This document shows, one piece after another, positions 9,462-62,569 of a DNA stretch of 64,000 bases (position 1 is the stretch's first letter; each line of letters begins with the position of its first letter). Origin of the DNA: an uncultured bacterium (GTDB taxonomy: Bacteria > Patescibacteriota > JABMPQ01 > CAVVCK01); contig CAVVCK010000001.1 of assembly GCA_963746775.1 (NCBI GenBank), forward strand, positions 275,050 through 339,049, written 5' to 3'. The notes beneath the pieces are model-generated. The model was not told the origin of the DNA. It did no database searches and saw only the letters and a list, made by a program, of their open reading frames with translations. Position numbers and translations under genes: made by a program.

Positions 9462-9629
9462 TATATTACCTAGTGATGTACCAGCCACTCAAGATTTTTA
9501 TGATCAGGTTATGGGTAGTATTAAATTTTCTGATTAAAATTTTCCGGGATTTAAATCACCATATATTCCCCCAATTAAAAGTTCTAAAATCATTGCATAG
9601 ACCTCGTAGATAAATAAATTATTTCAATA

Positions 9630-9655
9630 CAAAAAGACCTAAATAGGTCTTTTTG
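9630..9655. terminator. Bidirectional terminator hairpin.
   Basis: aaaaagacctaaataggtctttttg lies between convergent genes. Confidence 0.6.
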
Positions 9656-9683
9656 TTTACTAAAAATAGTTAAACCAACATTT

Positions 9684-10196: not shown

Positions 10197-10256
10197 ATTT
10201 TTTTAAATTATTTTATTAATTCTTAGATCTTATACTTTATATCTAACATTGAATGT

Positions 10257-30895: not shown

Positions 30896-31957
30896 ATGTC
30901 AAAAACAAAAATTTTTGGAGTTGTACTATTTTCTTTAGTTTTGCTGTTTACTTTCTCTTTAGCCCAAGCTGCAACCGATGCCGAAGAATTACAGCCAGCA
31001 GCACCTGGAGAGGCTACTAAAATTGGTGATTTAGGCCATTATTTTGATGAGTATTCCAGTTATTTACAATTAGATACGGCTCTTCATTCTAGTGAAACTA
31101 TGCATTTGCCTGACGTTCATATTGGCGGACAAGGAGTGGGTGGTGTTACCTTTTTTAATGGTACTATCGTTAATGAAACTACAGATCCAGAGACAGGAGC
31201 AGACCAACCGGTAACTTTTGGTGATAAGGTAAGAATTGATGACTACATTTACCGTAATGATCCTGGCGCAGTTGATAAAATGCCTGTTCTAATCGGCGAT
31301 GGTCTATCTCCTGCTCTAGACGCTGCTAATTCATTGGGTGAAGCAGAAAGAAGATGGCAATATTTATATGTCTCGGATAATATTTATGGGGATGATTTAA
31401 TAAATGAAAATAATTTATCGGTAACTAACGATCCTACTGCTAATTACGTATTATCTTATGCTGGAGATAACAGATTTACCTGGACATCCAATACCTTAAA
31501 TGCTTTATCTTGTTTTAATGGACAAATAGTAGTCTATGACTCAGCGACTACTTCATGGGTATGTTCTGACCTGGGCGATGCTATAAGTGATGCTATAGAT
31601 GGAGGCGACACTATTATTTCATCCAGTTCAACAACTATAGAAACACATCACCATGATGGAAGTTCATCTACTACAATTAATGCCCATGTAGTTGATGGTA
31701 CCACAACTTTAATCCCGGTCTGTAATACCGGCACATATGTGGCAGCTAACTCTATTACAATAAATTTAGAAAGCGGTGAGGCATTTTCTGATACAAATTA
31801 TACTGTTACCGCAACATACGAAACAGCAACAACACCAACAGCAGCTATGCAAAGTAGAAGTCCTATTATTGTAGATAAAATAAGTGGCAGCAGGTTCATA
31901 ATCTATACTTGCCTAGGAGATGCATCTTACGTGAATTGGCATGCCTTCGGTGATTAA
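30896..31957 (+). CDS. Secreted hypothetical protein.
   Basis: Signal peptide ...SLAQA. No recognisable motifs. Confidence 0.5.
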   Translation: MSKTKIFGVVLFSLVLLFTFSLAQAATDAEELQPAAPGEATKIGDLGHYFDEYSSYLQLDTALHSSETMHLPDVHIGGQGVGGVTFFNGTIVNETTDPETGADQPVTFGDKVRIDDYIYRNDPGAVDKMPVLIGDGLSPALDAANSLGEAERRWQYLYVSDNIYGDDLINENNLSVTNDPTANYVLSYAGDNRFTWTSNTLNALSCFNGQIVVYDSATTSWVCSDLGDAISDAIDGGDTIISSSSTTIETHHHDGSSSTTINAHVVDGTTTLIPVCNTGTYVAANSITINLESGEAFSDTNYTVTATYETATTPTAAMQSRSPIIVDKISGSRFIIYTCLGDASYVNWHAFGD

Positions 31958-31982
31958 TCTCTCAATTATCAATATAAGAAAT

Positions 31983-32008
31983 AGGGCTTCAACAAGCCCT
32001 GTTTTTTT
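31983..32008 (+). terminator. Rho-independent terminator.
   Basis: agggcttcaacaagccct + TTTTTTT. Confidence 0.6.
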
Positions 32009-32182
32009 ATTGTAAAATCTATTTATCCCCTCGCCTTTTTGCTAAAAATATGTTATAATTGCTATGGAAGTTAAATTGGTAATATTCTTACAATTTTTTT
32101 TTGAATAATTAGTGAAAATATTACAACTTGACAATTAACTAATTTGTGATATATTAAATTATAAATAAATAACTATAAAAAT

Positions 32183-33922
32183 ATGGCAACAGCAGAAAAT
32201 TTACCTGGACAAGATCCTAGAGAAAAAGCTGCTCAAGAATTCGCAAAACAACAAAAAAAACAAAGATCGGAACAAGAAGCTATGAGAGAAGCAGCTGATA
32301 AATCTGGCATAAAATACGAGGAGACAGAAGGTGGATATGCTGTATCAGGTGGTACAGCTAGAAAAGAAAAGCCTGCTTTAAAAGTAATAGAGGGGGGTAA
32401 AGAAGAAAAACCAACACTAATGATAAGTAGCGAAAAAGAAAGGCAAGAAATGTTTGATGAATTAACAAAATCTTTTTCAGAAGGAAAAATAGACCTTGAT
32501 CAGTTTACAGGAAAATATAATGATATATACCAAGCTGAAGTGGAAGAAACATTAGTAGAAGTAACACAAGTTACCCCCGATCAATATATAGATCTTCAAG
32601 ACACAATAAAAAAACAGTTTAAAGATCCTAAAGAACAAGCTGAAAAATTAGCTCTTTTAGATGAAACAACCGAACTTGTGGTAGATGAAAAGGCAGAAGA
32701 AGAAAAAAGAGAAGGCTACGATTTAAAAGACTTAGTCGAATTATCTGATCAAAAGAATAAACAAGAAGCTCAGGCTACTTCTGGTGCTTTAAAAAACGCA
32801 ACTGAACTTCTTGAGAGAGGTATCTTGTCTGCCGACGAAACAAGAGATATAGTCACCGATGCTTTTATATTAAAGGCAAGTAAAAATCTAAAAGAGGGAA
32901 AAATGGAATTATATGCAGCTATAGGACTTTCTAATATGATCGAAGGAGACACAGAAAAATTACAAAAAGCTGTCAATGCCAGAAAAGCTGAATTGACAAA
33001 ACAAGCTAGAGTAGAAATGGATAAAGGAATAGATGCAGCTTATGATAGAGGTGATTTATCATTTTCTAGCGAAGAATTCGAAGAAAGTCAAAGAGCTTAT
33101 AAAGATCAAGCCAGAAAAATTCAAGATGAACTTGGCATTAACATTAAAAATCCTAGCTTTTCTGACCGCTTTAAAATACAAGTTATGAAACTACAGCCTG
33201 CAAAACGAAAAGCTTATTTTGATCCATTAGAAAGCTTTCGTACTGAATATCAATCAAAAGTAAATCAAGTTACTGAAAAAGCACCCCAATCTTTATCAAG
33301 CAAACCCCTAGCAGAATTACAAAGAGCAGGAATGGTTTCTGCTGCTAAAATACCAGAAAAAACCTTATCACCTGAAGAAAAATTAGAAAGAGACTTAGAG
33401 TCAGGAGAAATTTCTCTAAACGAATATCTTAAAATTACTAATGCAGCAGATAAGGTAAGAGAGGGGTTAGAAGAAAAACACAGAAAAAACTTAGCAGACA
33501 TAGAAATACTTAAGAATACTCCTTTGATAATGAAAAGTATTGATGAAATGAAAAAAGAAGGAATAATAGACGTATCTAGTACTGACTACCAAAAAGCTGT
33601 TCATGATCTTTATACTAGTAAGCAATGGCTAGAAACAAATGCCAATTATGATCCTAATAAAGGGTTCTTTGCCAATTGGGCCAGAGCCAGAGAAGCTCAA
33701 ATCGACATGAGTCAGTATAAAAAATATCGCAAACAATACCTAGAAGCTGAAAAAAGATTCCACGAATTGAATTCAATTTTAGAAAAAGCCAATTTCTGGG
33801 GTGAGGCAGAAATAATCGAAGCTATTGCGCCAGCAGCAACAGAACCGCAAGGTCAAGAAGCTCCTACTCCATTTACAACTAACAAATCTGCGCCTGATAC
33901 AACAAAAAGAACTAATGCGTAA
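32183..33922 (+). CDS. Highly charged (E/K-rich) coiled-coil hypothetical protein.
   Basis: 579 aa with no TM helix and no recognisable enzymatic motifs. Confidence 0.5.
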   Translation: MATAENLPGQDPREKAAQEFAKQQKKQRSEQEAMREAADKSGIKYEETEGGYAVSGGTARKEKPALKVIEGGKEEKPTLMISSEKERQEMFDELTKSFSEGKIDLDQFTGKYNDIYQAEVEETLVEVTQVTPDQYIDLQDTIKKQFKDPKEQAEKLALLDETTELVVDEKAEEEKREGYDLKDLVELSDQKNKQEAQATSGALKNATELLERGILSADETRDIVTDAFILKASKNLKEGKMELYAAIGLSNMIEGDTEKLQKAVNARKAELTKQARVEMDKGIDAAYDRGDLSFSSEEFEESQRAYKDQARKIQDELGINIKNPSFSDRFKIQVMKLQPAKRKAYFDPLESFRTEYQSKVNQVTEKAPQSLSSKPLAELQRAGMVSAAKIPEKTLSPEEKLERDLESGEISLNEYLKITNAADKVREGLEEKHRKNLADIEILKNTPLIMKSIDEMKKEGIIDVSSTDYQKAVHDLYTSKQWLETNANYDPNKGFFANWARAREAQIDMSQYKKYRKQYLEAEKRFHELNSILEKANFWGEAEIIEAIAPAATEPQGQEAPTPFTTNKSAPDTTKRTNA

Positions 33923-33955
33923 AATATAATACTTATTTAAGTAAAATATAAAAAA

Positions 33956-33985
33956 ACAAGCCTTTAAAACTATGGCTTGTTTTTT
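33956..33985. terminator. Bidirectional terminator between convergent genes.
   Basis: aaaaaacaagcctttaaaactatggcttgttttttaa. Confidence 0.55.
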
Positions 33986-34006: not shown

Positions 34007-34324
34007 TTACTTCTCTTTAGATTTTTCAGAAGGAGGAGTTAATTCCTCTCCTTGCGGAGAAGGAACTCCAAGCTCCTCTGGTGTCGTGCCTTCCCCCCTT
34101 TTTTTAGATCCAGTAAGACTCCTACCAGTTCTAGCTTCTTCTTCTACAATTGAGCTTTCTGTATCTGCTATCGCCTTACATATAGTACAATCTCTATAAA
34201 ATCTACCATGCGGACATTTTTTCATAACCTCTCTAGGTGTCTTTGGCTTGTTGCAAACAGGACACGAACCTCTTTCATTGCCATGATCGCACATATCAAT
34301 ATCAGTACTTAATTCCTCTCTCAT
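34007..34324 (-). CDS. Small Cys4+ zinc-ribbon protein.
   Basis: CDHGNERGSCPVCNK ... CPHGRFYRDCTICK. Confidence 0.5.
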   Translation of the reverse strand: MREELSTDIDMCDHGNERGSCPVCNKPKTPREVMKKCPHGRFYRDCTICKAIADTESSIVEEEARTGRSLTGSKKRGEGTTPEELGVPSPQGEELTPPSEKSKEK

Positions 34325-34358
34325 TTTTTTATTAGTTAATTAATAAATAAATTTATAT

Positions 34359-36176
34359 TTATGCCGCTCTATCTAGATCTAGCCCTTTATCTTTTGGTAA
34401 TTCTTTCAATTGAGCTCTTAATCTTGATATTTTTGATACTAAATCAGATTTTTCTGCTTGATCCTCGGAAGCCTCATGTTGTAATCTTAAATAATGTATA
34501 GTCTCCTCGGTTAACAGATTATAGCGTTGAATATATCTTGGGTCGGGATTTTCTTCTAAATTTTTTCTTGCCTTACTAACATAATCAAGTCTTTCTGGTA
34601 CTAAACCAAGAGATACTATTTCATTTCTATTGGCAATTTTGCTTACCAGCTGTGTTCTCTTTTCTTTAGAAAGAGAATCGACAATTTTTCTAGCCCTTTC
34701 TCTAAGCTTAATACTTTCGGCTGAATCTTGATTCTTCGATATTGCTAAATAAATTTGTGTCAACCTTTCTTCTTCCAATCCTAAACCTATTATTTCTTCA
34801 TCAGACATACTATCTACTATATTCTTTCTTTCCTTTAATAGAGAATTTAACACTATTTCTCTATTTTTTGCTGACAATTTTTTAGCCTCTTCTATTTTTC
34901 CTGCAAGTTCTTTATAGTTTTTTATTAATGGACTCTTTTCTACAACTTCTATCAACTCGTCAGTATCTAACTCTTCTGGAGCTTCTACCTCACTTAAATC
35001 AATATCAATTGGTGTATCTTCTTCTTTGGCTAATTTTCCCAACTCTGCTAAAGCGTTATCAGCCTCATCTCCTACTCTTGCTGTGGTAATTGTAATATCA
35101 TCATCATGCGCACCTTCTTCCTTAACCCTTCTTTTTATTTCATCCACTACATCCTTAACACCACCCTTAGAATATAAATCTACCAGCTCTTCCTCCGTCA
35201 AAACATCTATTCCATCCGAAGCTAACATATAAACATCACCGGGTTTTGTCTCTATGTGACCAGCTTTGGCCATAAATTTTCCCTCTTGCACAGGATTTCC
35301 CAAAGCTTGCGTCATAAGTGCTCCTAATTTTTCTAATTTTTGTTTGTTTAGATCAAAATTTTTTGCTTCTTCTCCACTTAAACCCTGAGATTTTATTAAA
35401 CTTCCCTTCAAATGCTCAATAGCTGCAGGTTGTCTTTTAAAGAATTCTTGCAACCCCCCGCATTCACCAATAGTCTTATCAAGAATTCTACCTTTAGCAT
35501 CATAAACATCCTTCCTTTTTATCCATTTCAAATTAGCCATTTCATACAATAAATTATCCTCATCCAAAAGTTTTTCTAATTTTCCATCTCTAATTAAATA
35601 AACATGGCTATCGCCAATACCGGCAAAAGCAAAGTGTTTTTCATCTTCTGTGAAAGTACCAACTACAGCTGTAGATTTCATTTTTCCCCTTTCGGTATTT
35701 CTTCCAGCATCACTCAATATTGCTTTGTTTGCTTGACCTAGAGCTGCAACCAATTCATTTTTTAAATTATCCGGGTCTTTAAAATCTCCTTTTTCTAATT
35801 TTAAAAAATGCATAGCTACTGTATCTGCTGCCAAGCTGCTAGCTACATCACCACCTGCATCAGAGCCAACACCATCAAAAGCACCTATCAATCCAATATT
35901 CTCTATATTCAAAGCTTTGTCTTGATTAGGATGTCTTTCTGAAGAAGTGCTAATTTGCTCTGTGCTAACCTCCCTGTGAAGATATTCTGCCGCCCTGATT
36001 CTATCATCTTTTTCACGAACAACGCCTTCTTTTCTCCTGACACCAGTATCTTCTTTATCAGTATAGGGAGGATATTCTTCTCCCTCTACTTCAATAATTT
36101 CTTCAACTTGGTCAGTTAAATCTTCTATCTCTTCTTTGGCAGCTTTTTCTCCAGCTGCAAAATTTCTTTCCCCCAT
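34359..36176 (-). CDS. PP2C/PPM-family Ser/Thr phosphatase domain protein with a long C-terminal coiled coil.
   Basis: PPM motifs FDGVGSDAGGDVASSLAADTV, FAFAGIGDSHVYLIRDGKL, MLASDGIDV, and GAHDDDITITTARV. Confidence 0.65.
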   Translation of the reverse strand: MGERNFAAGEKAAKEEIEDLTDQVEEIIEVEGEEYPPYTDKEDTGVRRKEGVVREKDDRIRAAEYLHREVSTEQISTSSERHPNQDKALNIENIGLIGAFDGVGSDAGGDVASSLAADTVAMHFLKLEKGDFKDPDNLKNELVAALGQANKAILSDAGRNTERGKMKSTAVVGTFTEDEKHFAFAGIGDSHVYLIRDGKLEKLLDEDNLLYEMANLKWIKRKDVYDAKGRILDKTIGECGGLQEFFKRQPAAIEHLKGSLIKSQGLSGEEAKNFDLNKQKLEKLGALMTQALGNPVQEGKFMAKAGHIETKPGDVYMLASDGIDVLTEEELVDLYSKGGVKDVVDEIKRRVKEEGAHDDDITITTARVGDEADNALAELGKLAKEEDTPIDIDLSEVEAPEELDTDELIEVVEKSPLIKNYKELAGKIEEAKKLSAKNREIVLNSLLKERKNIVDSMSDEEIIGLGLEEERLTQIYLAISKNQDSAESIKLRERARKIVDSLSKEKRTQLVSKIANRNEIVSLGLVPERLDYVSKARKNLEENPDPRYIQRYNLLTEETIHYLRLQHEASEDQAEKSDLVSKISRLRAQLKELPKDKGLDLDRAA

Positions 36177-36212
36177 ATTTTTTTATTATTTATTATAAAA
36201 TTAAATTATAAA

Positions 36213-36620
36213 TTAAGCTGCCTCCCTATAATCTTCTCTACCAATAATTTCTTCCCTTCTTTTTAATAATTCATTTCTTTTATTTCTAAAAGCATTAAAT
36301 TTTTCCTGATATTCTTCTTTAGTCATTCTTCCTGGACCAGATAGACCCTGCTCTTCTCTTATAGATCTTATACTAACATCATCTTCAAATTCCAGTCTTG
36401 CTTTTTCTAGTTTTTTAATTTCATCGTCAACAAGGGCTAGAGCTGCTTCTTTCTCCATATTTTCTAATTGCTTATCACTCATAGGATCCTCTCCTTCAAC
36501 TTCCTTAATTTCAGGAACTACCATATCAAACCTAGTAGCATCATCCTGAACTTCTTTGGGTCCTTCTATTTTATCGCTTTTAAATCCATATTGTTTAGAA
36601 ATTCCTCCTCCATCTCTCAT
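36213..36620 (-). CDS. Acidic hypothetical protein.
   Basis: 135 aa, E/D-rich, no recognisable motifs. Confidence 0.4.
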   Translation of the reverse strand: MRDGGGISKQYGFKSDKIEGPKEVQDDATRFDMVVPEIKEVEGEDPMSDKQLENMEKEAALALVDDEIKKLEKARLEFEDDVSIRSIREEQGLSGPGRMTKEEYQEKFNAFRNKRNELLKRREEIIGREDYREAA

Positions 36621-36681
36621 ACGTTTTTTTATTATATCATTTATGTATTACACTATATCATATTTATGACATATTGTCAAC

Positions 36682-37257
36682 CTATTTTTCCCTTATTTTA
36701 AGGTCATAGGACACCTCTTCAATCTTTCTCAAATTCCTCTTAGCCTGATCATATTTCCCTCTATGTTTACCCAACAAATCAAATTTAACCAATTCTCCTA
36801 CAACGCTTTGTACCGCTTCCTGATATTCTCCAATTTTGTTATTATCACCCTTTGTTACTGCTTGAACTGCTTTTCTAACAATTTCTCCAGTAAAATCACA
36901 TATACCCCCTATTAGGTCATTAAAATCAGCAGTAACACTTGATTTAAAATCAACTTGACCAGTTTTTAGAAATTCATAAAACATAGAAGCCTCGATAAAC
37001 TCTTCTAAACCTTCTTTATATGAACCTTCATTTTTTAATCTTTTTTCTTTCTCAAATAATTTTTCTAAATTTATAATTTTATTTTCCGTATCTTTTAATA
37101 TTTTCTCTGCTTCCTTTAGTTCGTCTCTATGCAATGCAAAAATAGCCTGTTTGGAATTTCTTAAAATATCACGCGAGTCAACAATGATTTGGTCACGAAA
37201 TTTAGTGTAATTTCTATAGGAAGTAAGTAGCTCGTTAAACAAAACTTTATTCAACAT
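36682..37257 (-). CDS. Translin-family-like helical protein (tentative).
   Basis: Residues (a) ...VDSRDILRNSKQAIFALHRD...AEKIL, (b) EGLEEFIEASMFYEFLKTGQ, (c) DLIGGICDFTGEIVRKAVQAVTKGD and (d) C-terminal NLRKIEEVSYDLKIREK echo Translin motifs, including the DLTGEL-type segment and the C-terminal K(V/I)EEVVYDL. Confidence 0.4.
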   Translation of the reverse strand: MLNKVLFNELLTSYRNYTKFRDQIIVDSRDILRNSKQAIFALHRDELKEAEKILKDTENKIINLEKLFEKEKRLKNEGSYKEGLEEFIEASMFYEFLKTGQVDFKSSVTADFNDLIGGICDFTGEIVRKAVQAVTKGDNNKIGEYQEAVQSVVGELVKFDLLGKHRGKYDQAKRNLRKIEEVSYDLKIREK

Positions 37258-37280
37258 TTTATTTTATATTATAAATTATA

Positions 37281-38009
37281 TTATTCGAAATTAAAACTAT
37301 CAATCATACTATCAAAATCCCCTTTATACTTATTATAATCAGCTTCAGCTCCAGAATAAGAAATAGTATAAACATCGTCTCCTTGAAAAAAATAAACTCG
37401 TATAGACATACCTTCTTCTTCAAAATTAGTTTCTTCTTTTATAGCCTTAAGCCCAGCTACAGCTATTTGATTAGAACTCTTTGGCTCCCCTGAAAATAGA
37501 TGTCCCTCTCTGGCCCAATCTTCCAAAGATAAATTCCTAGGATTACCTTGCACTAATATTTCTACTTTTATCCCCTCCACTAAATCAATATCACTTATTT
37601 TATCAACTTTATTATTTAGGAAATAGACTATCCAGCTATCTTCCCTATTTTCCGGACCCTCAAACCAGCTCTGTGGGTATTTTATATTATAATTATAGAA
37701 AGTATTTTTATAAATTTGCCAATCTTTTGTTTTTTCATCTACGTTTCCAACCTTATCTGAACTAACATTTTCTTTACTGTCCTCTCTTGATGGTTCATTA
37801 TTTTTATCTTCTGTCTTTTTTTCTTCTACTTGTTCTTTGCCTGCCTGGGTAATTTCACCTTGTGCTCCCTGTTCTTTTTCTAATTTTATTTCTTCCCTAT
37901 GGTACCAATAACTATAGGCAAAAATAGCTATTATGATTAAAGCTCCTAAAATAGATGTTAAAATTATTATTAAATTTTTATTATTTTTTATAAACATGGT
38001 TATTTCCAA
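37281..38009 (-). CDS. Membrane-anchored hypothetical protein with an extracytoplasmic domain.
   Basis: N-terminal TM helix, charged linker, and a beta-rich C-terminal domain. Confidence 0.45.
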   Translation of the reverse strand: MEITMFIKNNKNLIIILTSILGALIIIAIFAYSYWYHREEIKLEKEQGAQGEITQAGKEQVEEKKTEDKNNEPSREDSKENVSSDKVGNVDEKTKDWQIYKNTFYNYNIKYPQSWFEGPENREDSWIVYFLNNKVDKISDIDLVEGIKVEILVQGNPRNLSLEDWAREGHLFSGEPKSSNQIAVAGLKAIKEETNFEEEGMSIRVYFFQGDDVYTISYSGAEADYNKYKGDFDSMIDSFNFE

Positions 38010-38035
38010 TTAAAATTTTTTGTGTGAAAGAAATT

Positions 38036-38100
38036 TCTGCCATGGGCGGGAAATTCTTCTACGTTCCCCATGGGAACGGTCCCTGCTGCCCATGGCAGCA
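38036..38100. repeat. REP-like GC-rich palindromes with a CCATGGG core (left flank of the transposase remnant).
   Basis: tctgccatgggcgggaa, gttccccatgggaac, and tgctgcccatggcagca. Local GC is far above the window average. Confidence 0.6.
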
Positions 38101-38106
38101 ATTTTT

Positions 38107-38683
38107 TTAATTTATAGAATTTACTCTAATACCCTCTAATGCCTTCATATCTACTACACCTTCATTGTTTTCTTCCACACTAATCACACTACGCACTATT
38201 TCTTGAACTTGTTTTTCACCAAACTTCTTGACCGTATAATAATAACTAGAAAAAGAATTTTCTTTTAATTCTGCAAAGGATTGCCAATAACATAGCCAGT
38301 TACCTTCCAAGATACTTCTTCGTTTTTAATATAAAAAACTTTAGTGCTTTGCCAAAATGTTTCATAAGGAACTTGGTAAAGTTTTCTGTATTCTCGTGAA
38401 GTTCCACTGTGAAGTATATTTTTCAATTGAGTCATCTTTCTGCCATCATCTAAATGAAATTTTAATGAAAATGGTTTAAATTAATGCTAAAAGCTAAAAT
38501 AGGAACTTTTAAAACTTGTTTTACTTGTTTAATTTTATTTAAAATAATCTGTTTTTGGGGTATTTCTTTGAAATAAGGATAGTGAGTAAAAGTAGAAGTG
38601 GTCAGAAAATAATAGGTATTATCTGGCCAGCGAATTTTATGCCGTTTAGGGAGAGGTTGTTTCATTTTTTTATCTTCAATCAA
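38107..38683 (-). pseudogene. IS200/IS605-family HuH tyrosine transposase (RAYT-like), disrupted by at least two frameshifts.
   Basis: Three frames together read MKQPLPKRHKIRWPDNTYYFLTTSTF...ILAFSINLNHFH / LKFHLDDGRKMTQLKNILHSGTSREYRKLYQVPYETFWQSTKVFYIKNEEVSWKVTGYVIGNPLQN / ...FAELKENSFSSYYY. This matches RAYT/TnpA motifs (NHxH HuH, WQ, YI..NP, WSSY). Confidence 0.65.
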
Positions 38684-39264
38684 TAATTTCTGCCATGGGC
38701 AGAAGAAACTCCCGCCATGGGCGGGATAGAAGAAATATTCATACTAAATTCACACCCGCAATAATGCTGTCTGTATAAATTATATTTTTTACTTAACTCT
38801 ACTGATTTTCTAAAACCATCTTTCTTTTTAAAATCTATATCTAAAAATTTTATTTTAAACTCATTACCTAATTTATCCCCTATCTTTTTAATTTTTGCAA
38901 AATTTTTATAAGGTGAAATAGTCAAAGTTGTTGTAAAATAATCAAAACCTTCTCTGCTTGTTTCCTTAGCAACTTCCCTCAATCTTATCTCATAACATCT
39001 TAAACATCTCCTACCACCCTCTAGTTCTTTTTCCAAACCTCTCACCTGCTCTAACCAATTTTGATGATTATAATTTGCTTCAATTAACTTAATATTTATT
39101 TCTTTACAATATTTTTTTGTCTCTTCTAGTCTCTTTAAATATTCTTTTTCAGGATAAATATTGGAGTTACAAAACATACCAGTCACTTCATATTCTTCAC
39201 TTAATCTTTCAATAGAAGCAGTGGAACAAGGAGCGCAGCAGATATGGAGTAGAACTTTTTTCAT
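38680..39264 (-). CDS. queH: Epoxyqueuosine reductase QueH (DUF208), with a C-terminal extension encoded by the REP palindromes.
   Basis: LLHICCAPCS N-terminal motif and C-terminal YRQHYCGCEFS. The last ~20 codons (MNISSIPPMAGVSSAHGRNY) are read through the GC-rich palindromes. Confidence 0.8.
   Translation of the reverse strand: MKKVLLHICCAPCSTASIERLSEEYEVTGMFCNSNIYPEKEYLKRLEETKKYCKEINIKLIEANYNHQNWLEQVRGLEKELEGGRRCLRCYEIRLREVAKETSREGFDYFTTTLTISPYKNFAKIKKIGDKLGNEFKIKFLDIDFKKKDGFRKSVELSKKYNLYRQHYCGCEFSMNISSIPPMAGVSSAHGRNY
38688..38726. repeat. REP-like CCATGGG palindromes (right flank). They are embedded in the 3' end of the queH ORF.
   Basis: ttctgccatgggcagaa and tcccgccatgggcggga. Confidence 0.6.
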
Positions 39265-42275: not shown

Positions 42276-43841
42276 TTATTTAGAATCGCGTAATTTTTTA
42301 TAAAATTCATTATATTTAAAAATGATATCTTTATTGGACACCCCTCTGTACATTTTTTCATATAGTTCTGGGTTAATTAATCTTAGATTCTCGCGAGCGA
42401 ATTCTATAATATCAGAAACATCCTCTTGATTCACCATTTTATTTAACGAAGAACCTCTACCATTTTTTGTTCTGTTGCGTAACCATCTCATAAGAGGTTT
42501 TTTCAAGAAAATTGCTTTGCCCAACATATATATAAATTCATTAAAATCTCCTTTATCCTTCTTTGGATTAAATCTAGGTAAAAATTCAGGATTATGTTCT
42601 CTTACTATCTTGCGCAACCTCATATTCTCATCCAATAATTTTATAAAATTATCTTTTTTTGATATTTCCTCTAAAATAATTCCTACAAATCTTTTATCTT
42701 TACTAGCAATAGTTTCCCATGGTTTCCTCAATCCGCCTTTTAGATTACATGTTCTCAAAAAATATTTTATATTAGTCTGATTATTTCTTATAATATCCTG
42801 TATTTTATCTAGGATAGAAGCTGGAAGCTCATCTATACCTATATCTTTATTCCCACTCAAAATATTACAAATATTCCAAAAATAATAAAATCTCTCATCT
42901 TCGTCTTCAACAGCTTCCATCTTATTTTTATAATAGTCTATCAATGTTGTTAATATCTCTTTATGCTCTTTTCTTTCAAATCCATGAGTAAAATTATAAT
43001 GAAATCCTCTTATAAACTCATCCATTCTTAGACCGGTATAATCATCATTATGTGGCTTTCCGGTCTCAAAATCATATTTAGCCCAAGTAGCATCTAAATC
43101 CATTACATCTAATTCTGAATTTTCATCAACATAAATAAAAGTATTCCAAGCATGCGTGTCATCACCAAATATTTTACCTTCGTTGGTAGGTTTGTGTTTT
43201 CTTGCACGAAAATCACCTATTTTATACAAACAATATAAATTTTGCGTTTTATACTTGCTTTTTTGATTTACCTTCAATGATTCAAATATGCCTTTTACTA
43301 CACAAGCATAATTTCTACATATACCATTACCTTTCCATTCTTTATTGTTAATATTTTTTCTTCCCTCTTCGAGAATTTCTAAAATTGTAGATCTATCAGC
43401 TTTTTCTCCATACGGCTTACCATCCTTATAAGAATAACGCATTAAACTCATGGCTATTTCTATAGATAGACCAACTAATTGTCTAGCCGATAAATCATTT
43501 ATATCATTTATCCCTAATCTTCTTCTAATTGCTTCCCCCTCATATGCAAGATAATTTTCTAAAAATTTATAGGTTTTTTCTTTCCAATTAGGATCTTCTG
43601 TTGTGTTTACATAAGTATTTTTATAATTAATATCACTCTCTGTGTTATCAATAATTTTTTTTAAGCTGCTGTTTAGCTCTACCTTATTATCATTGGGTTT
43701 TGGTTCTGGATTAAAATCATCAAAACTAATAAAGTTTAATTTAAAGCTTGGAAATTCTAAAGATTCGATAACTTTTTTAACCTCACTCTCTCCAAATTCA
43801 TCTAAATTTTCTCTATTTATTGGCAAACCTTCTGCTCTCAT
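42276..43841 (-). CDS. Transglutaminase-like cysteine protease superfamily protein.
   Basis: Cys motif GNGICRNYACVVKGIF, His motif HAWNTFIYVD, and a downstream Asp (DLDATW) in the expected order. Confidence 0.5.
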   Translation of the reverse strand: MRAEGLPINRENLDEFGESEVKKVIESLEFPSFKLNFISFDDFNPEPKPNDNKVELNSSLKKIIDNTESDINYKNTYVNTTEDPNWKEKTYKFLENYLAYEGEAIRRRLGINDINDLSARQLVGLSIEIAMSLMRYSYKDGKPYGEKADRSTILEILEEGRKNINNKEWKGNGICRNYACVVKGIFESLKVNQKSKYKTQNLYCLYKIGDFRARKHKPTNEGKIFGDDTHAWNTFIYVDENSELDVMDLDATWAKYDFETGKPHNDDYTGLRMDEFIRGFHYNFTHGFERKEHKEILTTLIDYYKNKMEAVEDEDERFYYFWNICNILSGNKDIGIDELPASILDKIQDIIRNNQTNIKYFLRTCNLKGGLRKPWETIASKDKRFVGIILEEISKKDNFIKLLDENMRLRKIVREHNPEFLPRFNPKKDKGDFNEFIYMLGKAIFLKKPLMRWLRNRTKNGRGSSLNKMVNQEDVSDIIEFARENLRLINPELYEKMYRGVSNKDIIFKYNEFYKKLRDSK

Positions 43842-53809: not shown

Positions 53810-56800
53810 CTATTCCTCCACCTCCACCTTCGTCCCCACCCCAACTATATAGAAGCCTTCATTAAGTAATTCGGAATCCTTAGAATAAAATCTGGCATGA
53901 GTAGGCCCTTGAATAGGAGTAATTATCATATCCTTTTCTTTTGAACCTCCTTGTAATTCGTCATTATGAAAATTAAATGCCTGCACTTTAGTCTTGCCAT
54001 CTGTATGCTCTGGATAGGCCATGAAGCCGGCAGTAATAGGTTGGCCCTCTTTATTAAATATCCTCACATGAGCAGAATACATTTGAGCTACTGTTATAAT
54101 TTCAGCCGGACCCGAAGTACTATCTAGGTCGGTGGCTTCTAAATCTATACCACCATGATAGGTTGGATCATAAGCGTAAAAATCAGGTCTTAATTTCTTA
54201 CCATTTTTATTAAATATTCTAACTACGCTGGATCCTTTCTTAGAACCTACAACTATTTCTTTCTCTCCACCTGTACCATCCAAATCAGCTACCGATAAAA
54301 CTATGCCTTGATTGTAATCAGTACTGTTTTTGTCAAAAGGAATAATGTCAGGAATAATTTGTTTTAGTTTTTTGGTCTCAGGGTCTTTACCATAAATCAT
54401 AATAGTATTATGGTCAGAGACTAATACTTCCTTAGCCCCATTATTATTTTCTAGATCTACTACATCCAAATCGAAAAGTATATCCTTAACTGATTGATAA
54501 TTCTGTAGATAAGGTAAAAAGGCAGTGATTGGAGACATGATTTCCTTACCGTCTCTATTAAAGACTTTGAGAATACCATCGGAAAAAAGAATAATAATCT
54601 CTAAATCACCACTGTCTTGATCTGGTCCTTCCAGATTAGCTATTTTAACTATACTGTTACCTCGGAAGGAGTCTTCTCGGGCGAAGAAGGAATTTAATAC
54701 CTTCCCGTCCTTATTGAAGATACGAATGTGGGCTGCTCCATCCATAGGAGAAGTTACTATTTCTTGTTCTCCTCCTGTTCCCTGAAGGTCACCCACAGCA
54801 ATGTTTACTCCATTGGTGTAGGATTTGTCATAAGCTAAAAAAGGAGGGGTTAAGATAAAGCCTTCTTTAGAATAGATTCTAACGTAGGGAGCACCACTTC
54901 GGGGAGCGGTGACTATTTCTTTAGTACCGTCGTAAGTTAAATCAGCTACTTCAATATTGGCTCCGTCATCTATTATGCCTTGTTCTTCTTCTAACCTAAT
55001 GTCTTCTTCTGTTTTGGTTGTTTGGGCACGCCAGATTTCAGTTACACCCTCTTCGGTTAAACTATCTACGGTAGGTTCTTCGGCTGGAGTAATTAAGAAG
55101 ATATAATCGGAAAGAATAGTTTGATTTTGAGCATAGTCGCGGATGCGGATTTCGAGAGTAACTTGTTCGTTTACTTCAAAGTCTCTTTCAGGAATAAGGG
55201 TTACTTTAAAATCAGAAGCCGACCCATCAAAGGCTTTGGTAATATTTTTATGTATTCCTGAACTTGAACCAGTAACAGTTGTACGCAAAGTTCCAATATC
55301 TACTCCGCTCTCGCTATCTTTGGCATGAAATGAAATAGTAGTATTAGGTGATATCTTTATAGCTCCCTTTTCCGGTGAAAGATCGGTAATAGTGGGCGGT
55401 GTAATATCACCGATTGCTCCACCTTCTTTAGTAGTGAAAGACCAGGCCGAAGTAGCAGAATTAGTTCCGTCAGACGCCAGAATAAAAACATTTACTTCTT
55501 GTAAATAATCAAAATCATTATCAGGATTAAGAGTTACATTATAACCTCCTGTACCATCAGAAGTAATGGTACAAGAATAATTACTCTCGCAAGAACCATT
55601 ATTTATAGCCGGACTGCCTTCAATTAAAACATTTAAAGTACTTATATTTATACCAGTATAAATATCATCTAATTCAAAATAAATATTGGTATCTATACCC
55701 ACATTAGTAGCTCCATCAGCCGGTGACTGATGAGAAATAGTAGGAGTTGTAACATCGGGATCAGCATCTGTCGTTCCAGAGTCCGTACCATCAAAAGCTG
55801 TCTCAATACCATCTTCATTGCGAGCCTTAGCGCGAGCAGTATAAGATGTTTCGGCACTAAGCCCAGTCACTGTGGTCGTCCCCCAGGCTGCTTTTGTCTG
55901 CCAAACCTCGCTGGCACCCAAAAATCCATCAGCTTGCACATAATAATCATTAGTACCATCAGATATTCGGATAGCATAAGTAGTATAAGCAGGATTACTA
56001 TCACTACCTAAGGTAACATCGAGAGAATTATTAGTAACATTACTAATGTTAGGTTGTCCGGGAACTTCTGCTAGAGTATAAAGACTATCCGTTCCGCCAA
56101 AAGCTGTTTCTACATCATCACCATTACGAGCTTTGGTCTGGAAATCATAGGAAGTATTAAGGCTAAGACCAGTTACAGTGACTGTACTCCAAGTAGCATT
56201 ATCTTGCCAGATAGCAGTAGCGCCTAGGGATCCATCAGCTTGTACGTAATTACCAGATCCAGTTTCTTGAATAGCAAATTCAGTATTACTAGGATTAGAA
56301 TTAACATCAAAAGCAACATCTAAAGTAGAGGTTGTAGGATTACTCACTACTAAAGCGCCAGGGGTATTAGCCGCAGTGTAGGTAACTATCTCCGTAGCGT
56401 TAGCTTTATTTCCATAACTATCATACGTCCAAATATTAGCTACATACTGGGTATTAACATTAAGAGGATTAGTCGTTGTGGTACCACCAGGAGTATATGC
56501 TCCAGTTGCAATAGTAGTATGCAGAGTATCCGTCTCAGTTACACCAGATGCTCCTTGTTTATAATAAATAGAATAATGATCTAGATTAGTATCACTGCCG
56601 GCTGCACCCAAGGTATAAATAATTGAGTTAGCAGTAATAGAATCAATCATTAAATTACCAGAGGTCGTGGGATCTACATTGTCAAGAGTCAAGGTTGTAT
56701 CAGCCGAAACAGAAGGAGTTAAACCGTTATGAGCAGTAGTCCTAACACAATAAGTACCGTCAGCTGCTGGCTCATCCGTAGCCGACAACCAATCAAAATC

Positions 56801-59800
56801 TACAGTGTTGGTACCCACATCAACCACCGAGACACTGCCTACTTGATATTCATTACTATTGTTAATAGTAGGGGTACCACTATCTGCGCTATATGTTCCC
56901 ACGGTAGTATCTATAGTGGGATCAGATGTTCCTGCTGAACAATCAGCACCTGCTTTGTATTCTAGTTTAGCAGATAAAATACCCGAAGTATTTAGATCAT
57001 CTAGTTCTAAACTTATATCAACTGCTCCAGTACCATCAGTTTTCTCTGCCACTGAATTGATAGCATTATACGAAGTAGCTATAATAAATGACATATTAGA
57101 TAAAATGGCAGTTTCTCCTTCATCAGCATGTAAATAAGCCCTAACGTTAAAATCACCTCCCAAAGATAAATTTGCTAAACAAGTATTCGTAATACCAATA
57201 GCTGTATTAGTCTGAGCATAGTCATCAGCGGCTGAGGTTAGAGTATCCCCTACACAATAATTCCATGTAGTACCACCATCATCTGATATTTGATATCTTA
57301 CTTCGCCAGTTCCAGAAGAAGTAGCATTAAAATTATAAACCGAGTAAAAAGAATGAGAAGCATCAAATACTATTTTCTGATCAATTGAAGAAGGAATATT
57401 TGTCTCGTCATCTAAAGTATAAAAAGTACTAGGATCCGATTGATTGGAATAAGCGGCTTTAATCCAGTTAGCATCTCTATTAGTACTAGAAACCCTTAAC
57501 TCGTCTATACTGCCATCAAAATATCTATTTGGTATATCATAATTATGGTTATAATAAGCGCCGCCTATTTTACCTATATTGTGCCAGGTATTAGAATCAT
57601 AAATAATAGTTCCGCTTGATCCTAGGCTTATAGTTTGTAATAAGCTGCCATTACGATAAAAATAGCCATTGTTTCCATCTTTAACTACAGACAATAATTG
57701 CCATTCGCCAGTAGTATAAGCTCCAGGACTCGTTTCTGTTGTATCATCATCATTGTCACCGTTTATATCAAAAACAATAGTTCGATTATTAGTATCACCC
57801 GAAAGACCAAACATCCAGCCAGAATCTGTGCCAGGTATATCATACCTATTATCAAATATCACACCGGCATCATCAGAATCAGAATAAATCCAAGCTGATA
57901 TACTAAAAGATTCGGTAGTAAAATCAGTATTAGCACCAGAAGTTACACTATAAAAAGAACTAGAACCATTAAAAGTATCAGCTCCATCAAGCCAAGTTGG
58001 ACCACTAACATCCTGGGTAACACTAGTAGGAGTTGCGGTATTAGAATTAGCGGAATCATCTATATTTCCTGAAGTCTCATTCATATGCCAAACAGTTTCA
58101 AAATTACCATCCCCACTCCAAGTACCACTCACATTTTCCTGACTGCCAATAGTATTATTACCATAATACATATATATTTCAGTACCTAAGGCTAAAGAAG
58201 GAATGTTAACCCAAGCAACTAGCTCACCAGTTGCTCCATCAAAATATTCTATCTCATGATCTAATTTTACATCTGCCATAGAAGCAAATAATATATCCTC
58301 ACCATTACTCTGAGCATCCGCTGCTAGATCTGAATCAGAAGATAAGGAAATCAGTACAGGAAAATTAGTCTGAGTTGCCGGCAGTAAAGAACTGTTGTTA
58401 GTAAAAGTAATCTTTTTACGCGAAGCCCAATCAATATCGTACCAATCACTAGAATATGAAAACTGAGCATCTCCTGCTGAATAAGTAATGTCATCATCAA
58501 CAGTATATAAATCATCACTATAAAAATTTCTACTTATAGGTAAATATCCCGGATCGGTTTGAATAGTAAAATTATTTTCACTAGTATAGCAAGTATTGCT
58601 GCCATCATTATTACTACAAACTCTTAATTTAACAGTTGTACTGGATATATTAGGAATTGTCCAAACATAAGATTTTATTTCTGTGGGCGCACTAGTCGAG
58701 ATAACCGAAGAAGTTACTTCTGTTGAAGATCCAAAGTCATCTGTTGAATAATATATGTTTACCGTCTCATTACTCTCCCCACCAGATGAACCCCATAAAA
58801 TAGGTACTTGCTGTCCCTGCCCCACTGTTCCTCCTTGATCAAAGTTATATAATTCTATTGCCCTAGGTGCATAAAAGGTAGATTCCGTTGATGACCAAAT
58901 CCCAGCCCCATAAGCATTGCTAAATCTTATGCGCCAATAATAGGTTGTATTATATGATAATTGAGATCCATCATAAGTTATATTACCGCTCCTAACTCCA
59001 TCAGCTATATCGACAATATCAACATTACTTGACCACAAGGTAGAAGAAAAATCAGAGTTATCATCCACTTCTATATCTGCTGTAATACAATTACCAGACG
59101 GTGTATTACAGATAGCAGAAAAAACTGGAGTTAAATCTGTTATATTGGTAGGATTAATATCACCAGTTGAAGCATCAGTGCTATGCGAATACAAAATATC
59201 AGGAGCCGAAGGAGATAGTTGTGATGAGGAAAATAAACCATCGCTGCCATTTACTCCACCACCAGAAGTAGTACCGCCAGTTCGAGTAACATTTCCTGAA
59301 TTAATACTATTTGAGATAATATACTCTAATAAGACACATCCCCCTCCCCCTCCCCCTCCACCATTCGAAGTATTTCCACCAGTTACCGTAAAACTAGCAG
59401 GTGTGCCAGCTATAGTATCAGCACTAATTTTTACACCACCACCTGCTCCACCCCCAGAATAGCCACTAGCAGCAGCGTTACTGCCATCAGCCGTAATAGT
59501 ACCATCAATAGTTGCAGTTCCGCTAACATCAAAAATAATTAGACCACCACCATTACCAGTATTATAGTTACTGCCTGCATAAGTTGTTCTCCCACCACCA
59601 GAACCCATAGTATCAGGATCAGTAATATCACAATAAGCTGTACCACCAGCATCTCCTTCATCATCATTTCCTCCATTTCCACCATGCGCTCCTCCACTAC
59701 CACTATTTCCGGAACCAAGTATTCCTGGTCCTAATCCATAACCATCTCTATGACTAGTCGTACCACCATCATACCCTACTCCATCAACACTAGCTGAGGC

Positions 59801-62489: not shown

Positions 62490-62569
62490 TTAAATATAAA
62501 AAACATTATATACATTATATTATAACATTTTTAAAGATTTTTCTCAATGATAATAAATGTGGATATCTG

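Follow-up and report, generated by a model that had tools for sequence, protein, structure and literature searches.

The question raised by this locus is whether five co-directional genes of an uncultured Patescibacterium, lying next to the remnant of a RAYT, make up a single undescribed accessory system, as had been proposed in a sequence-only reading of the window (the whole analysed stretch of DNA, 64,000 nucleotides). The cluster is probably better described as two adjoining units that behave differently in evolution. The first is a membrane anchor and a TRAX-like translin, a conserved pair in the backbone of this family-level Patescibacteria clade. The second is made up of an acidic 135-aa protein, a 605-aa PP2C phosphatase and a 105-aa Zn protein; these share a hypervariable slot, located between translin and ThiI, with the converging genes at 30896-33922. 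The features discussed below are as follows.

38034-38726, minus strand: degraded RAYT with flanking REP-like palindromes (fragments 38462-38683, 38265-38435 and 38107-38310)
37281-38009, minus strand: 242-aa ORF, membrane-anchored protein
36682-37257, minus strand: 191-aa ORF, TRAX-like translin-family protein, candidate C3PO-type nuclease
36652-36680, minus strand: promoter-like site TTGACA-17-TATAGT with TG (consensus match 11/12), inside the 61-nt spacer between the translin and acidic genes
36213-36620, minus strand: 135-aa ORF, acidic orphan protein
34359-36176, minus strand: 605-aa ORF, PPM/PP2C phosphatase
36021-36152, minus strand: N-terminal acidic motif of the 605-aa protein (N-motif; residues 9-52)
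35067-35975, minus strand: PP2C domain of the 605-aa protein with a long flap insert (residues ~68-370)
34362-34979, minus strand: helical tail of the 605-aa protein with two 'LGL' repeats (residues ~400-605)
34007-34324, minus strand: 105-aa ORF, Zn-ribbon-like protein (Zn105)
33951-33985 (approximate), both strands: bidirectional intrinsic-terminator-like hairpin between the converging gene sets (AAAAAACAAGCC, 11-nt loop, GGCTTGTTTTTT)
30896-33922, plus strand: converging ORF pair encoding a secreted 353-aa and a charged 579-aa protein, in the same hypervariable slot

The five minus-strand ORFs at 34007-38009 are co-directional and lie exactly at these coordinates, with spacers of 23, 61, 36 and 34 nt (in the order 242-aa, 191-aa, 135-aa, 605-aa, 105-aa), in agreement with the short spacing originally reported. 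At 0.31-0.35, the cluster lies within the GC range of the window. The four downstream proteins (191, 135, 605 and 105 aa) are called genes in the public annotation, and their exact sequences are on record, among ~15 billion proteins, as singletons at 90% identity. The TTG-start form of the 242-aa protein is absent from the same record, and its true start is probably the ATG at 37997 because the alignment of orthologues points there. The bidirectional terminator claimed for the end of the cluster was recovered by reading the sequence; the automatic scan, with a loop limit of 8, missed this hairpin because its loop is 11 nt long. That scan yielded no terminator-like site on the minus strand inside the cluster, including the interval between the translin and acidic genes. 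The number of promoter-like sites in the region is not above chance (27 observed vs a shuffled expectation of 22.3) and the one in the 61-nt spacer is not conserved, the corresponding spacer in the relative locus L092 being 20 nt; it is a possible lead to an internal start of a second transcription unit. All five genes may also be transcribed together.

The translin and PP2C assignments both hold up under profile methods, with scores above the Pfam cut-offs. The 191-aa protein belongs to the Pfam family Translin (PF01997, E 2.2e-24, 87 bits vs a cut-off of 25.9), and its best solved relatives are human TRAX, fly TRAX and N. equitans C3PO. Residues K36, E86, E89, D121, E125 and R128, with the catalytic E-E-D-E set among them, are invariant in 18 Patescibacteria homologues and correspond to K34, E82, E85, D117, E121 and R124 of NeC3PO (PMC5100593). 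Because every metal-coordinating (two ions) and substrate-binding residue of archaeal C3PO is kept, the protein most likely acts as a homo-oligomeric, metal-dependent endonuclease; judging by homology, from which both the oligomeric state and the nuclease activity are deduced, it would employ Mg2+ or Mn2+ and attack single-stranded RNA or DNA inside a closed shell. Its role is likely to be housekeeping RNA (possibly tRNA) processing or turnover, rather than defence. Relatives of this translin are encoded in at least 231 Patescibacteria species genomes, and the neighbours in 80 species-level translin loci are clade-specific housekeeping genes (PilB-like ATPase, YceG, MurD-like ligase, FtsH, phosphoesterase). 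Among these loci, a PP2C neighbour is confined to the closest clade, namely L001 and L005 (L002 and L005 being one contig), and occurs in 0 of the ~75 more distant loci.

The 242-aa protein does have the membrane anchor attributed to it, namely, an N-terminal transmembrane helix (residues ~13-36; hydrophobicity over 19 residues peaks in the stretch beginning at residue 13, with a Kyte-Doolittle value of 3.03), followed by an acidic linker and a conserved C-terminal domain of ~150 aa. This domain carries a PsbP-like signal, with matches to PsbP_2 and PsbP in 6/9 and 5/9 of the anchor orthologues, respectively, all under the Pfam cut-offs. Anchor orthologues (28-61% identity) are located directly upstream of translin in all eight relative loci, where translin itself is 87% (L088), 84% (L085), 82% (L001), 80% (L092), 61% (L096), 53% (L098), 52% (L005) and 49% (L006) identical to that of the window.

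The two units part ways when these loci are compared. The shared backbone runs FemAB, 103 aa, Lon, QueH, anchor, translin, slot, ThiI, NUDIX, Holliday-junction-endonuclease-like; the order Lon/QueH/anchor/translin/ThiI is kept in all eight, and the anchor and translin occupy the same position within it in every relative examined. Thus, two of the five genes (anchor and translin) behave as conserved core genes in the same synteny but the other three do not: gene order is conserved for anchor-translin, whereas the PP2C, acidic and Zn genes are fused, split, on the opposite strand or absent. In L001, the Zn motif (one copy, N-terminal), the N-motif, the PP2C domain and the tail are fused in one protein; L092 has three genes (PP2C, N-motif with tail, Zn); L085 has an orthologue of the N-motif and tail without the phosphatase domain; L005 has the PP2C on the opposite strand; the slot of L098 is empty, and in both L098 and L006, anchor and translin are present without any PP2C, acidic or Zn gene. 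Divergence is similarly uneven. Between the window and L001, the flanking housekeeping genes are 67-82% identical (translin 82%, Lon 81%, QueH 74%, ThiI 68%; the anchor is at 59%) vs 45% for the secreted 353-aa protein, 29% for the PP2C and 23% for the 579-aa protein; long charged proteins related to the converging pair occur also in L085 and L092. The fast divergence of charged helical proteins might partly reflect low constraint, not functional diversification. The phosphatase/helical-tail/Zn-ribbon set is fast-evolving, reshuffled and limited to a very narrow group of Patescibacteria. In 4/5 of the closest-clade lineages (window, L001, L085 and L092), a PP2C or N-motif protein follows translin, and a clade-specific functional link between PP2C and translin is possible.

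The 605-aa protein belongs to this variable set. Its PPM/PP2C identity is secured by Pfam (PP2C_2, 40.4 bits vs 24; SpoIIE, 29.1 vs 25; PP2C, 20.9 vs 20.3) and by the AF2 model (core pLDDT 80-94), for which Foldseek retrieves tPphA (E 1e-14, TM 0.87). D86, D101-G102, G188-D189-S190, D321-G322 and D359 are invariant in the PP2C alignment, and all metal-binding Asp residues are present, so that the core is predicted, from sequence and model, to be a catalytically competent Ser/Thr phosphatase. The coiled coil of ~230 residues that had been proposed to follow the PP2C domain was not recovered; ~12 short helices are predicted in the tail instead (pLDDT 70-88). Among 1.84 billion representatives, only one other protein matches beyond the core, and two proteins match at E<=1e-30; the profile of the N-motif (..[LI][IV]EV[ED]G.E[YH]P...K[ED].[TS]GVR[RK]) matches only the four orthologues (E 1e-21 to 1e-26). 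There is no kinase, substrate or FHA partner among the larger ORFs scanned in the 64-kb window.

In the 105-aa protein, the double Zn motif noted from the sequence consists of two C-x-H-G-x5-C-x2-C copies (residues 12-24, nt 34253-34291, and residues 37-49, nt 34178-34216) followed by a charged tail, with no Pfam family above threshold. Across the ORFs of the window and of every fetched locus, this motif is restricted to Zn105, a 129-aa protein of L092 and the N-terminus of the L001 PP2C. The L092 protein is an orthologue in the same position, 67% identical to Zn105 with all eight Cys/His positions kept, whereas the PP2Cs of the two loci are 24% identical. The acidic 135-aa protein (pI 4.8, 45% charged residues) has no family match in Pfam, NCBIfam, PADLOC or PHROGs and no homologue in any fetched locus; comparing profiles gave no significant similarity to the N-motif/tail family. 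Like the 605-aa protein, it ends in Ala-Ala, a C-terminus shared by 5 non-redundant module proteins vs 6 among the other ~1,130 ORFs; that it is a proteolytic tag is speculation. Downstream of the Ala-Ala stops, the two spacers are AT-rich and resemble each other weakly (73% over 45 nt). We infer that the phosphatase physically associates with the Zn-ribbon protein and the N-motif/tail scaffold, and that these two would direct it to a phosphoprotein substrate.

It is unlikely that the slot, with its acidic protein, PP2C, Zn ribbon and two converging proteins (579 aa, and 353 aa, secreted), serves an episymbiotic Patescibacterium in host interaction or as a surface/effector locus, diversifying under selection and using the N-motif and C-terminal Ala-Ala as shared targeting signals. 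The divergence of the slot is indeed extreme relative to its flanks, modules are swapped between close relatives, the slot includes a secreted protein, module proteins are rich in C-terminal Ala-Ala, and the break immediately behind translin in four independent assemblies is compatible with strain-level heterogeneity. Nevertheless, among the slot proteins, only the 353-aa one has a signal peptide or transmembrane segment, no secretion-system genes are adjacent to the slot, there is no statistical support for the N-motif reappearing in the acidic protein or where the tail begins, and charged helical proteins diverge quickly without positive selection too.

Similarly doubtful, and somewhat more so, is the original proposal that all five genes are one operon for a new accessory system responding to stress or phage, with the translin nuclease under the control of a PP2C switch. 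The shared strand, the short spacers, the single terminator with none found inside the cluster, and the PP2C or scaffold protein after translin in four lineages all fit, and the part of the proposal that stands is that three genes are lineage-restricted and variable. However, no protein matches any PADLOC model, so the defence function was not borne out, and the single module dissolves: anchor and translin persist alone in L098 and L006, the L085 scaffold lacks the phosphatase, the L005 PP2C is on the other strand, the distant translin loci have no PP2C neighbour, and translin is conserved like the housekeeping genes, unlike the PP2C.

There is very little to recommend the view of the three variable genes as lineage-specific ORFs that are decaying or under weak constraint, lack a coherent function and arose by duplication and rearrangement in a recombination-prone spot. 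The lack of homologues of the acidic protein, slot contents that differ in each relative down to emptiness in L098, and the weakly similar post-Ala-Ala spacers are in its favour but the PP2C retains all metal ligands and folds confidently, Zn105 keeps its Cys/His positions, the N-motif is retained with E values of 1e-21 or better, and the long ORFs stay open in spite of an AT-rich genome, in which stop codons readily appear.

The RAYT/REP remnant beside the cluster is real: NCBIfam REP_Tyr_transpos matches it at 6.2e-05 (22.9 bits, under the cut-off of 80), the HUH and Y-x-x-N-P motifs are visible in different frames, and five REP-like GCCCATGGC palindromes (0.36 expected) all fall within 38034-38100 and 38688-38726. 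In relatives, which carry the cluster without a RAYT, its position is taken by a 172-181-aa acidic gene or nothing; the scar is an insertion specific to this genome that replaced this gene and, therefore, is no island boundary. A mobile element tied to the remnant immediately upstream is scarcely credible as the carrier of the cluster, given that RAYTs are domesticated single-copy transposases not known to carry cargo, relatives without RAYT have the same gene order, the palindromes surround the remnant but not the cluster, and the cluster is not distinct in GC content.

Compared with known RAYT/REP elements, the remnant has kept an N-terminal fragment of HUH type between palindromic REP-like repeats but is broken into at least three frames, matches the family profile below its cut-off, and is a scar adjoining the cluster. 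The two-unit reading can likewise be set against described systems. The 605-aa protein shares the fold (TM 0.80-0.87) and the metal-binding Asp set of the bacterial PPM/PP2C phosphatases tPphA, PstP, Stp1 and PppA, although it scores 85.5 vs a cut-off of 230 bits for the NCBIfam Stp1/IreP equivalog. It differs from them in a flap insert of ~90 residues, the acidic N-terminal motif and a helical tail of ~200 residues, which have no relatives outside two protein clusters, and the scanned neighbours include no Hanks kinase, FHA, STAS or anti-sigma partner. The 191-aa translin is in the same Pfam family as the archaeal single-subunit C3PO/TRAX (N. equitans NEQ131, A. fulgidus AfTRAX) and eukaryotic TRAX. 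It is close to the archaeal proteins in length (199-219 aa), has in common with them the four acidic residues that bind metal and the Lys/Arg that bind substrate (PMC5100593), and, as in archaea, is the single translin-superfamily gene of its locus. It is, however, bacterial, whereas prokaryotic members are reported in the literature searched from archaea and Chloroflexi only, and that search found no paper linking translin with Patescibacteria or CPR. Unlike archaeal and eukaryotic TRAX, the translin of this clade is paired with a membrane-anchored PsbP-like protein.

All five minus-strand open reading frames (ORFs) that the sequence-only reading had joined into one candidate accessory system (for example, for stress or phage response) beside a RAYT/REP remnant are present, at exactly the coordinates it had claimed, and are separated by spacers of 23, 61, 36 and 34 nt:

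37281-38009, minus strand, anchor gene, 242 aa as listed
36682-37257, minus strand, translin gene, 191 aa
36213-36620, minus strand, acidic gene, 135 aa
34359-36176, minus strand, PP2C gene, 605 aa
34007-34324, minus strand, Zn gene, 105 aa

In the form proposed, this five-gene 'system' is not a real unit. The anchor and translin genes occur in all eight related lineages, the anchor gene always directly upstream of the translin gene on the same strand, and the acidic, PP2C and Zn genes vary independently; island behavior, that is, loss of all five genes together with retention of the flanks, was not seen, these three being the only genes that vary. The conserved pair belongs to a housekeeping backbone, FemAB - 103-aa gene - Lon - QueH - anchor - translin - [slot] - ThiI, which continues past ThiI with NUDIX, a Holliday-junction-endonuclease-like gene, HAD and a permease, and which is present in the translin loci L001, L085/86, L088-91, L092-95, L096, L098, L005 and L006 of related genomes, with translin identity from 87% down to 49%. 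Evolutionary rates across the block are strongly heterogeneous: between the window and L001, the housekeeping proteins are 81% (Lon), 82% (translin), 74% (QueH) and 68% (ThiI) identical, the anchor proteins 59%, and the proteins encoded in the slot 45% (secreted 353-aa protein), 29% (PP2C) and 23% (579-aa protein). Gene order in the relatives is kept for the anchor and translin genes and not for the slot (the stretch between translin and ThiI, including two converging plus-strand genes at 30896-33922), the content of which is different in every lineage.

Content of the slot by lineage, with translin identity in brackets
Window: acidic 135 aa, PP2C 605 aa, Zn 105 aa; converging 579-aa and 353-aa genes
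L001 (82%): single 625-aa protein; converging 453-, 710- and 388-aa genes
L085 (84%): 301-aa protein; converging 495- and 535-aa genes
L092 (80%): PP2C 442 aa, 293 aa, Zn 129 aa; converging 595-aa gene
L096 (61%): two unrelated charged proteins, 347 and 215 aa
L005 (52%): TM protein and PP2C, opposite strand
L006 (49%): only membrane proteins
L098 (53%): empty, NUDIX directly after translin

In the closest relative (L088-L091, 87% translin identity), four independent assemblies stop ~30-160 nt past the translin stop codon, which suggests strain-level heterogeneity or repeats in the slot. Elsewhere in the window, a 521-aa ORF (42276-43841) without a Pfam match at E<=1e-5 separates FemAB from the 103-aa gene; as relatives show nothing of comparable size at the corresponding position of their syntenic loci, this ORF may be another lineage-specific insertion. 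A giant surface-protein locus, of a type characteristic of episymbiotic Patescibacteria, lies at 53810-60637 and 60528-63763 and encodes a 2,275-aa protein (Laminin_G_3, DUF2341, fn3 and Big_5 domains) and, after it, a 653-aa protein that belongs to no Pfam family and an FG-GAP protein of 397 aa.

There is no evidence for a new defense or accessory system. The five cluster proteins and the two converging proteins have no match in PADLOC-DB v2 at E<=0.1, so that none of the seven corresponds to a model of a known anti-phage system, and in PHROGs they have only weak matches or matches of unknown function. The sole defense-type domain near those closest-clade loci that carried Pfam annotations is that of an AbiEii toxin-domain gene in L098 (702-1445), ~6 kb upstream of translin and outside the conserved block. 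The candidate 'new defense system' is accordingly struck off, and the case illustrates that genes lined up neatly on one strand can still be a mosaic, here of a conserved pair next to a variable slot.

The RAYT/REP remnant itself is recognizable by its motifs and palindromes. Three short, mutually out-of-frame ORFs lie between QueH and the 242-aa gene and carry RAYT motifs (HUH-like 'HFH' and 'Y..NP'), and five REP-like GCCCATGGC palindromes flank the remnant and occur nowhere else in the 64-kb window (0.36 expected); the match of the first fragment to the REP-associated tyrosine transposase model is sub-threshold (22.9 bits, cut-off 80), and the remaining fragments do not match this model. 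The scar is an insertion peculiar to the window genome, and the cluster was rejected as RAYT cargo: in relatives, the same downstream genes follow an acidic gene of 172-181 aa, or nothing, at this place. This acidic protein, of no known family, lies between QueH and the anchor in L001 (6770-7315), L085 (7702-8223) and L092 (505-1023), with 29-40% mutual identity; in the window (38010-38680), the gene is missing and the RAYT remnant is in its place. Two of the palindromes (38688-38726) fall inside the last codons of the QueH ORF (38680-39264). The C-terminus of QueH (...SSIPPMAGVSSAHGRNY) is thus REP-encoded, and its ORF exceeds those of relatives by 9-17 aa; the REP/RAYT insertion seems to have remodeled the end of QueH.

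The translin, acidic, PP2C and Zn proteins are on record in their exact sequences as called genes of one 547-kb contig; clustering of ~15 billion proteins at 90% identity leaves all four as singletons. The TTG-start 242-aa version of the anchor has no exact record in this set; since, in addition, the orthologues align from an internal methionine, translation probably begins at the ATG at 37997 (238 aa), four residues inside the TTG ORF. The cluster does end at a terminator, as had been claimed: direct reading reveals a terminator-like hairpin at ~33951-33985 (AAAAAACAAGCC, an 11-nt loop, GGCTTGTTTTTT) with A-/T-runs on both sides, which the automatic scan missed because its loop limit was 8 nt. 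The spacer between the translin and acidic genes contains a strong promoter-like site, TTGACA-17-TATAGT with TG, a consensus match only that is not kept in relatives; it fits a division into two transcription units. The GC content of the cluster is unremarkable relative to the window, and the direct repeats within it are AT-rich, low-identity matches only, so there is no sign of recent duplication or of a template/variable repeat pair of the DGR type. The AT-rich spacers after the Ala-Ala stops of the PP2C and acidic genes (34323-34367 and 36177-36221) are 73% identical over 45 nt, which may be chance or the trace of a partial tandem duplication.

The call of the 191-aa protein as translin-like can be sharpened. 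It matches Pfam PF01997 well above the cut-off (E 2.2e-24, 87 bits, cut-off 25.9), with residues 21-189 covering profile positions 3-204 of 205, that is, the whole domain. The nearest solved structures are human and Drosophila TRAX and the single-subunit C3PO of Nanoarchaeum equitans, NeC3PO (E 6e-10 to 2e-8), and all of the 18 Patescibacteria homologues that were aligned keep K36, E85, E86, E89, D121, G124, E125 and R128. By spacing and alignment, E86, E89, D121 and E125 correspond to the metal-coordinating E82, E85, D117 and E121 of NeC3PO, and K36 and R128 to its substrate-binding K34 and R124 (PMC5100593). Because the nearest structures are TRAX and C3PO and the catalytic residues are invariant, the protein is classified, by its sequence, as TRAX-like with a complete catalytic signature; it would form a C3PO-like assembly and cleave single-stranded RNA or DNA by a two-metal-ion mechanism. 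There are hints of a tRNA connection: QueH and ThiI, on either side of translin in the clade of the window genome, are tRNA-modification genes; in archaea, TRAX and SepRS belong to one operon (PMC5424206); and eukaryotic C3PO is mentioned as implicated in tRNA processing (PMC5085120).

Translin relatives are widespread in the phylum. A word-indexed search yielded 128 translin clusters, nearly all with Patescibacteria-type names, and a pattern scan found relatives in at least 231 species-representative Patescibacteria genomes. For 80 of the 231 loci, ORFs were called and searched by iterated profiles seeded from each window protein. Among these, a PP2C near translin is found only in L001 and L005 (L002 being the contig of L005) and the C-terminal domain of the anchor only in L001, L005 and L006, and the acidic and Zn proteins have no match in any of the 80. 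Elsewhere, translin resides in clade-specific housekeeping blocks, with no universal partner and no PP2C:

Unknown 328 aa - PilB-like T2SSE ATPase - translin - ... - YfcE-like phosphoesterase: ~20 loci
DUF212 - YceG - translin - 398-aa gene on the opposite strand - methyltransferase: ~15 loci
Translin - MurD-like ligase: 11 loci

In ~20 species-level genomes (L027, L043, L044, L048, L053 and 15 more), translin directly follows the PilB-like T2SSE ATPase gene as its co-directional neighbor, at a distance of -29 to 290 nt, with a YfcE-like Metallophos_2 phosphoesterase 1-3 genes downstream of translin in 14 of the 20; this context may hint at a function in handling nucleic acids that are taken up or recycled, or may be the synteny of one clade. 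Many loci with a Patescibacteria-type protein and context (L008, L010, L013 and others) bear the record title 'uncultured Gammaproteobacteria bacterium', and L050 and L058 are titled Lysobacteraceae and Elusimicrobia, respectively, despite a Patescibacteria-type translin; such records look like mislabeled or mis-binned metagenome-assembled genomes. PMC5100593, with reference to Gupta et al. 2012, describes prokaryotic single-gene translin/TRAX proteins from archaea and Chloroflexi, and our search found no paper tying translin to Patescibacteria or CPR; the JGI automatic annotation already labels such proteins 'predicted translin family RNA/ssDNA-binding protein'. TRAX-like translins that are catalytically complete, as judged from their residues, are carried by at least 231 species-level Patescibacteria genomes. 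Where the toolkit for RNA metabolism is very reduced, a C3PO-type nuclease may serve in the turnover of RNA or nucleotides.

The 605-aa protein combines a PP2C fold with what is, by alignment and model, a complete catalytic signature, in agreement with the original PP2C call. It scores above the Pfam cut-offs for PP2C_2 (40.4 bits, cut-off 24) and SpoIIE (29.1, cut-off 25), and none of the metal-binding aspartates of motifs I, II, VIII and XI (D86, D101-G102, D189, D321 and D359) varies when the protein is aligned with 14 other PP2Cs. The AlphaFold model has a confident core (pLDDT 80-94), which Foldseek superimposes on tPphA, PstP, Stp1 and PppA with target TM-scores of 0.80-0.87 (tPphA, E 1e-14, TM 0.87). 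The C-terminal 200 residues, described previously as about 230 residues of coiled coil, are modeled as roughly a dozen short helices, with no single long coiled coil, and contain two '..[IV].LGL..ERL' repeats. An identity as the Stp1/IreP equivalog was rejected, the match to NF033484 reaching 85.5 bits over residues 80-237 only, with 230 needed. A SpoIIE/RsbU-type partner-switching phosphatase was also rejected, as the flanking genes encode no STAS anti-anti-sigma or anti-sigma kinase domains; no Hanks kinase or FHA protein, as in Stp/PstP-type kinase-phosphatase pairs, and no STAS or anti-sigma domain was found in a scan that covered the cluster neighbors and the larger window ORFs (all but ~15 of those with at least 100 aa).

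An acidic N-terminal motif, ..EE.E.L.D...[LI][IV]EV[ED]G.E[YH]P.[YF]...K[ED].[TS]GVR[RK], and the LGL-repeat helical tail are common to the window 605-aa, L001 625-aa, L085 301-aa and L092 293-aa proteins, which are the only matches to the motif profile among 1,431 ORFs (E 1e-21 to 1e-26). In the 301- and 293-aa proteins, the motif runs straight into the tail, so the phosphatase domain is absent; L092 has a separate 442-aa PP2C gene immediately upstream of the 293-aa gene, 36% identical to the PP2C region of L001. Colinearity of the 605-aa protein with these two genes, which supposes a second, degenerate N-terminal motif after the PP2C domain, was not supported, the profile matches lying where colinearity would put them and not being significant (iE 5.6 and 26). 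Word-indexed searches with the full protein or the catalytic domain returned low-complexity words or generic PP2Cs and missed the true orthologues, for the recovery of which an exhaustive HMMER search was needed; of the 1.84 billion representatives covered, a single further one (625 aa, L001 type) has similarity that extends past the generic PP2C core, so this architecture is confined to a very narrow clade. Peptide patterns chosen automatically retrieved no family members from metagenomes, and a degenerate DNA pattern for the N-terminal motif gave two chance matches, one on a high-GC contig; metagenomes therefore contributed no further members.

The Zn protein does contain the double cysteine motifs assigned to it, in the form of two C-x-H-G-x5-C-x2-C copies, but none of the named Zn-ribbon or zinc-finger Pfam families matches above cut-off (best PHF5, 16.3 bits, cut-off 26.7; zf-RING_2, 13.4, cut-off 27.3); there is no NCBIfam match, and its alignment profile has no meaningful match in PDB. 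The L092 ortholog, in the same terminal position, is 67% identical in the alignment (BLASTP E 3e-41), compared with 24% for the PP2C of the same pair, so the Zn protein is much better conserved. Among all ORFs of the window and the fetched loci, CxHGx5CxxC occurs in three proteins only: the window and L092 Zn proteins (two copies each) and the L001 PP2C protein (one copy, at the very N-terminus). Modular fusion, fission and loss thus link the PP2C, the motif/tail and the Zn ribbon, and the L001 fusion, together with the fused, split and absent states of the PP2C, is Rosetta-stone-type evidence suggesting that ribbon, scaffold and phosphatase act together. The PP2C module would be a separately evolving regulatory phosphatase on which the scaffold and the Zn partner would confer targeting.

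The other two proteins are less readily placed. In the anchor, a single strong TM helix at the N-terminus is followed by an acidic linker and a conserved C-terminal domain, with sub-threshold similarity to the PsbP-like families PF18933 and PF01789 (18.6 and 18.4 bits, cut-offs 27 and 23.5) that recurs at E<0.01 in 6/9 and 5/9 orthologues, respectively, never above the Pfam cut-off; a PDB profile search with the anchor alignment gave only a non-significant PsbP match (E 0.45), and the single-sequence AF2 model is unusable (mean pLDDT 49). The 135-aa acidic protein (pI 4.8, 45% charged residues) has no detectable relative in Pfam, NCBIfam, PADLOC, PHROGs, the fetched loci or profile comparison; neither a truncated motif/tail paralogue (hhalign E 0.11) nor an orthologue of the L096 215-aa protein (BLASTP E 0.11) is supported.

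The only two window proteins with an Ala-Ala C-terminus are the products of the adjacent PP2C and acidic genes (34359-34364 and 36213-36218). The L001 625-aa (8618-10495), L085 301-aa (9641-10546) and L092 442-aa (2353-3681) proteins end likewise, so that 5 non-redundant proteins of the variable module have this ending versus 6 among the other ~1,130 complete ORFs of at least 80 aa in the fetched loci. As ssrA tags end in Ala-Ala, this ending might, speculatively and by analogy, be a degron. As a long shot, the slot might encode a small polymorphic family, found in just one clade of Patescibacteria, with the N-terminal motif, CxHGx5CxxC, Ala-Ala and exchangeable payloads (PP2C, helical-repeat tail), in which the motif and Ala-Ala would be targeting or degradation signals, for example, for Lon three genes upstream; the phosphatase module so formed would be gated by proteolysis and would tune either host interaction or the adjacent TRAX nuclease.

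Overall, two modest leads emerge, a predicted phylum-wide bacterial C3PO-like nuclease and a shuffling phosphatase module; the set of PP2C, N-terminal motif, tail and Zn ribbon is a clean natural case of domain fusion, fission and loss over a short evolutionary distance. The translin is a bacterial member of a known family, with a C3PO-like nuclease activity predicted from its catalytic residues. The 605-aa protein shares the fold and the metal-binding aspartates with the bacterial PP2Cs tPphA, PstP, Stp1 and PppA but differs from them in its private N-terminal motif, flap insert, helical tail and Zn partner, and with these features it is a previously undescribed variation on PP2C phosphatases.
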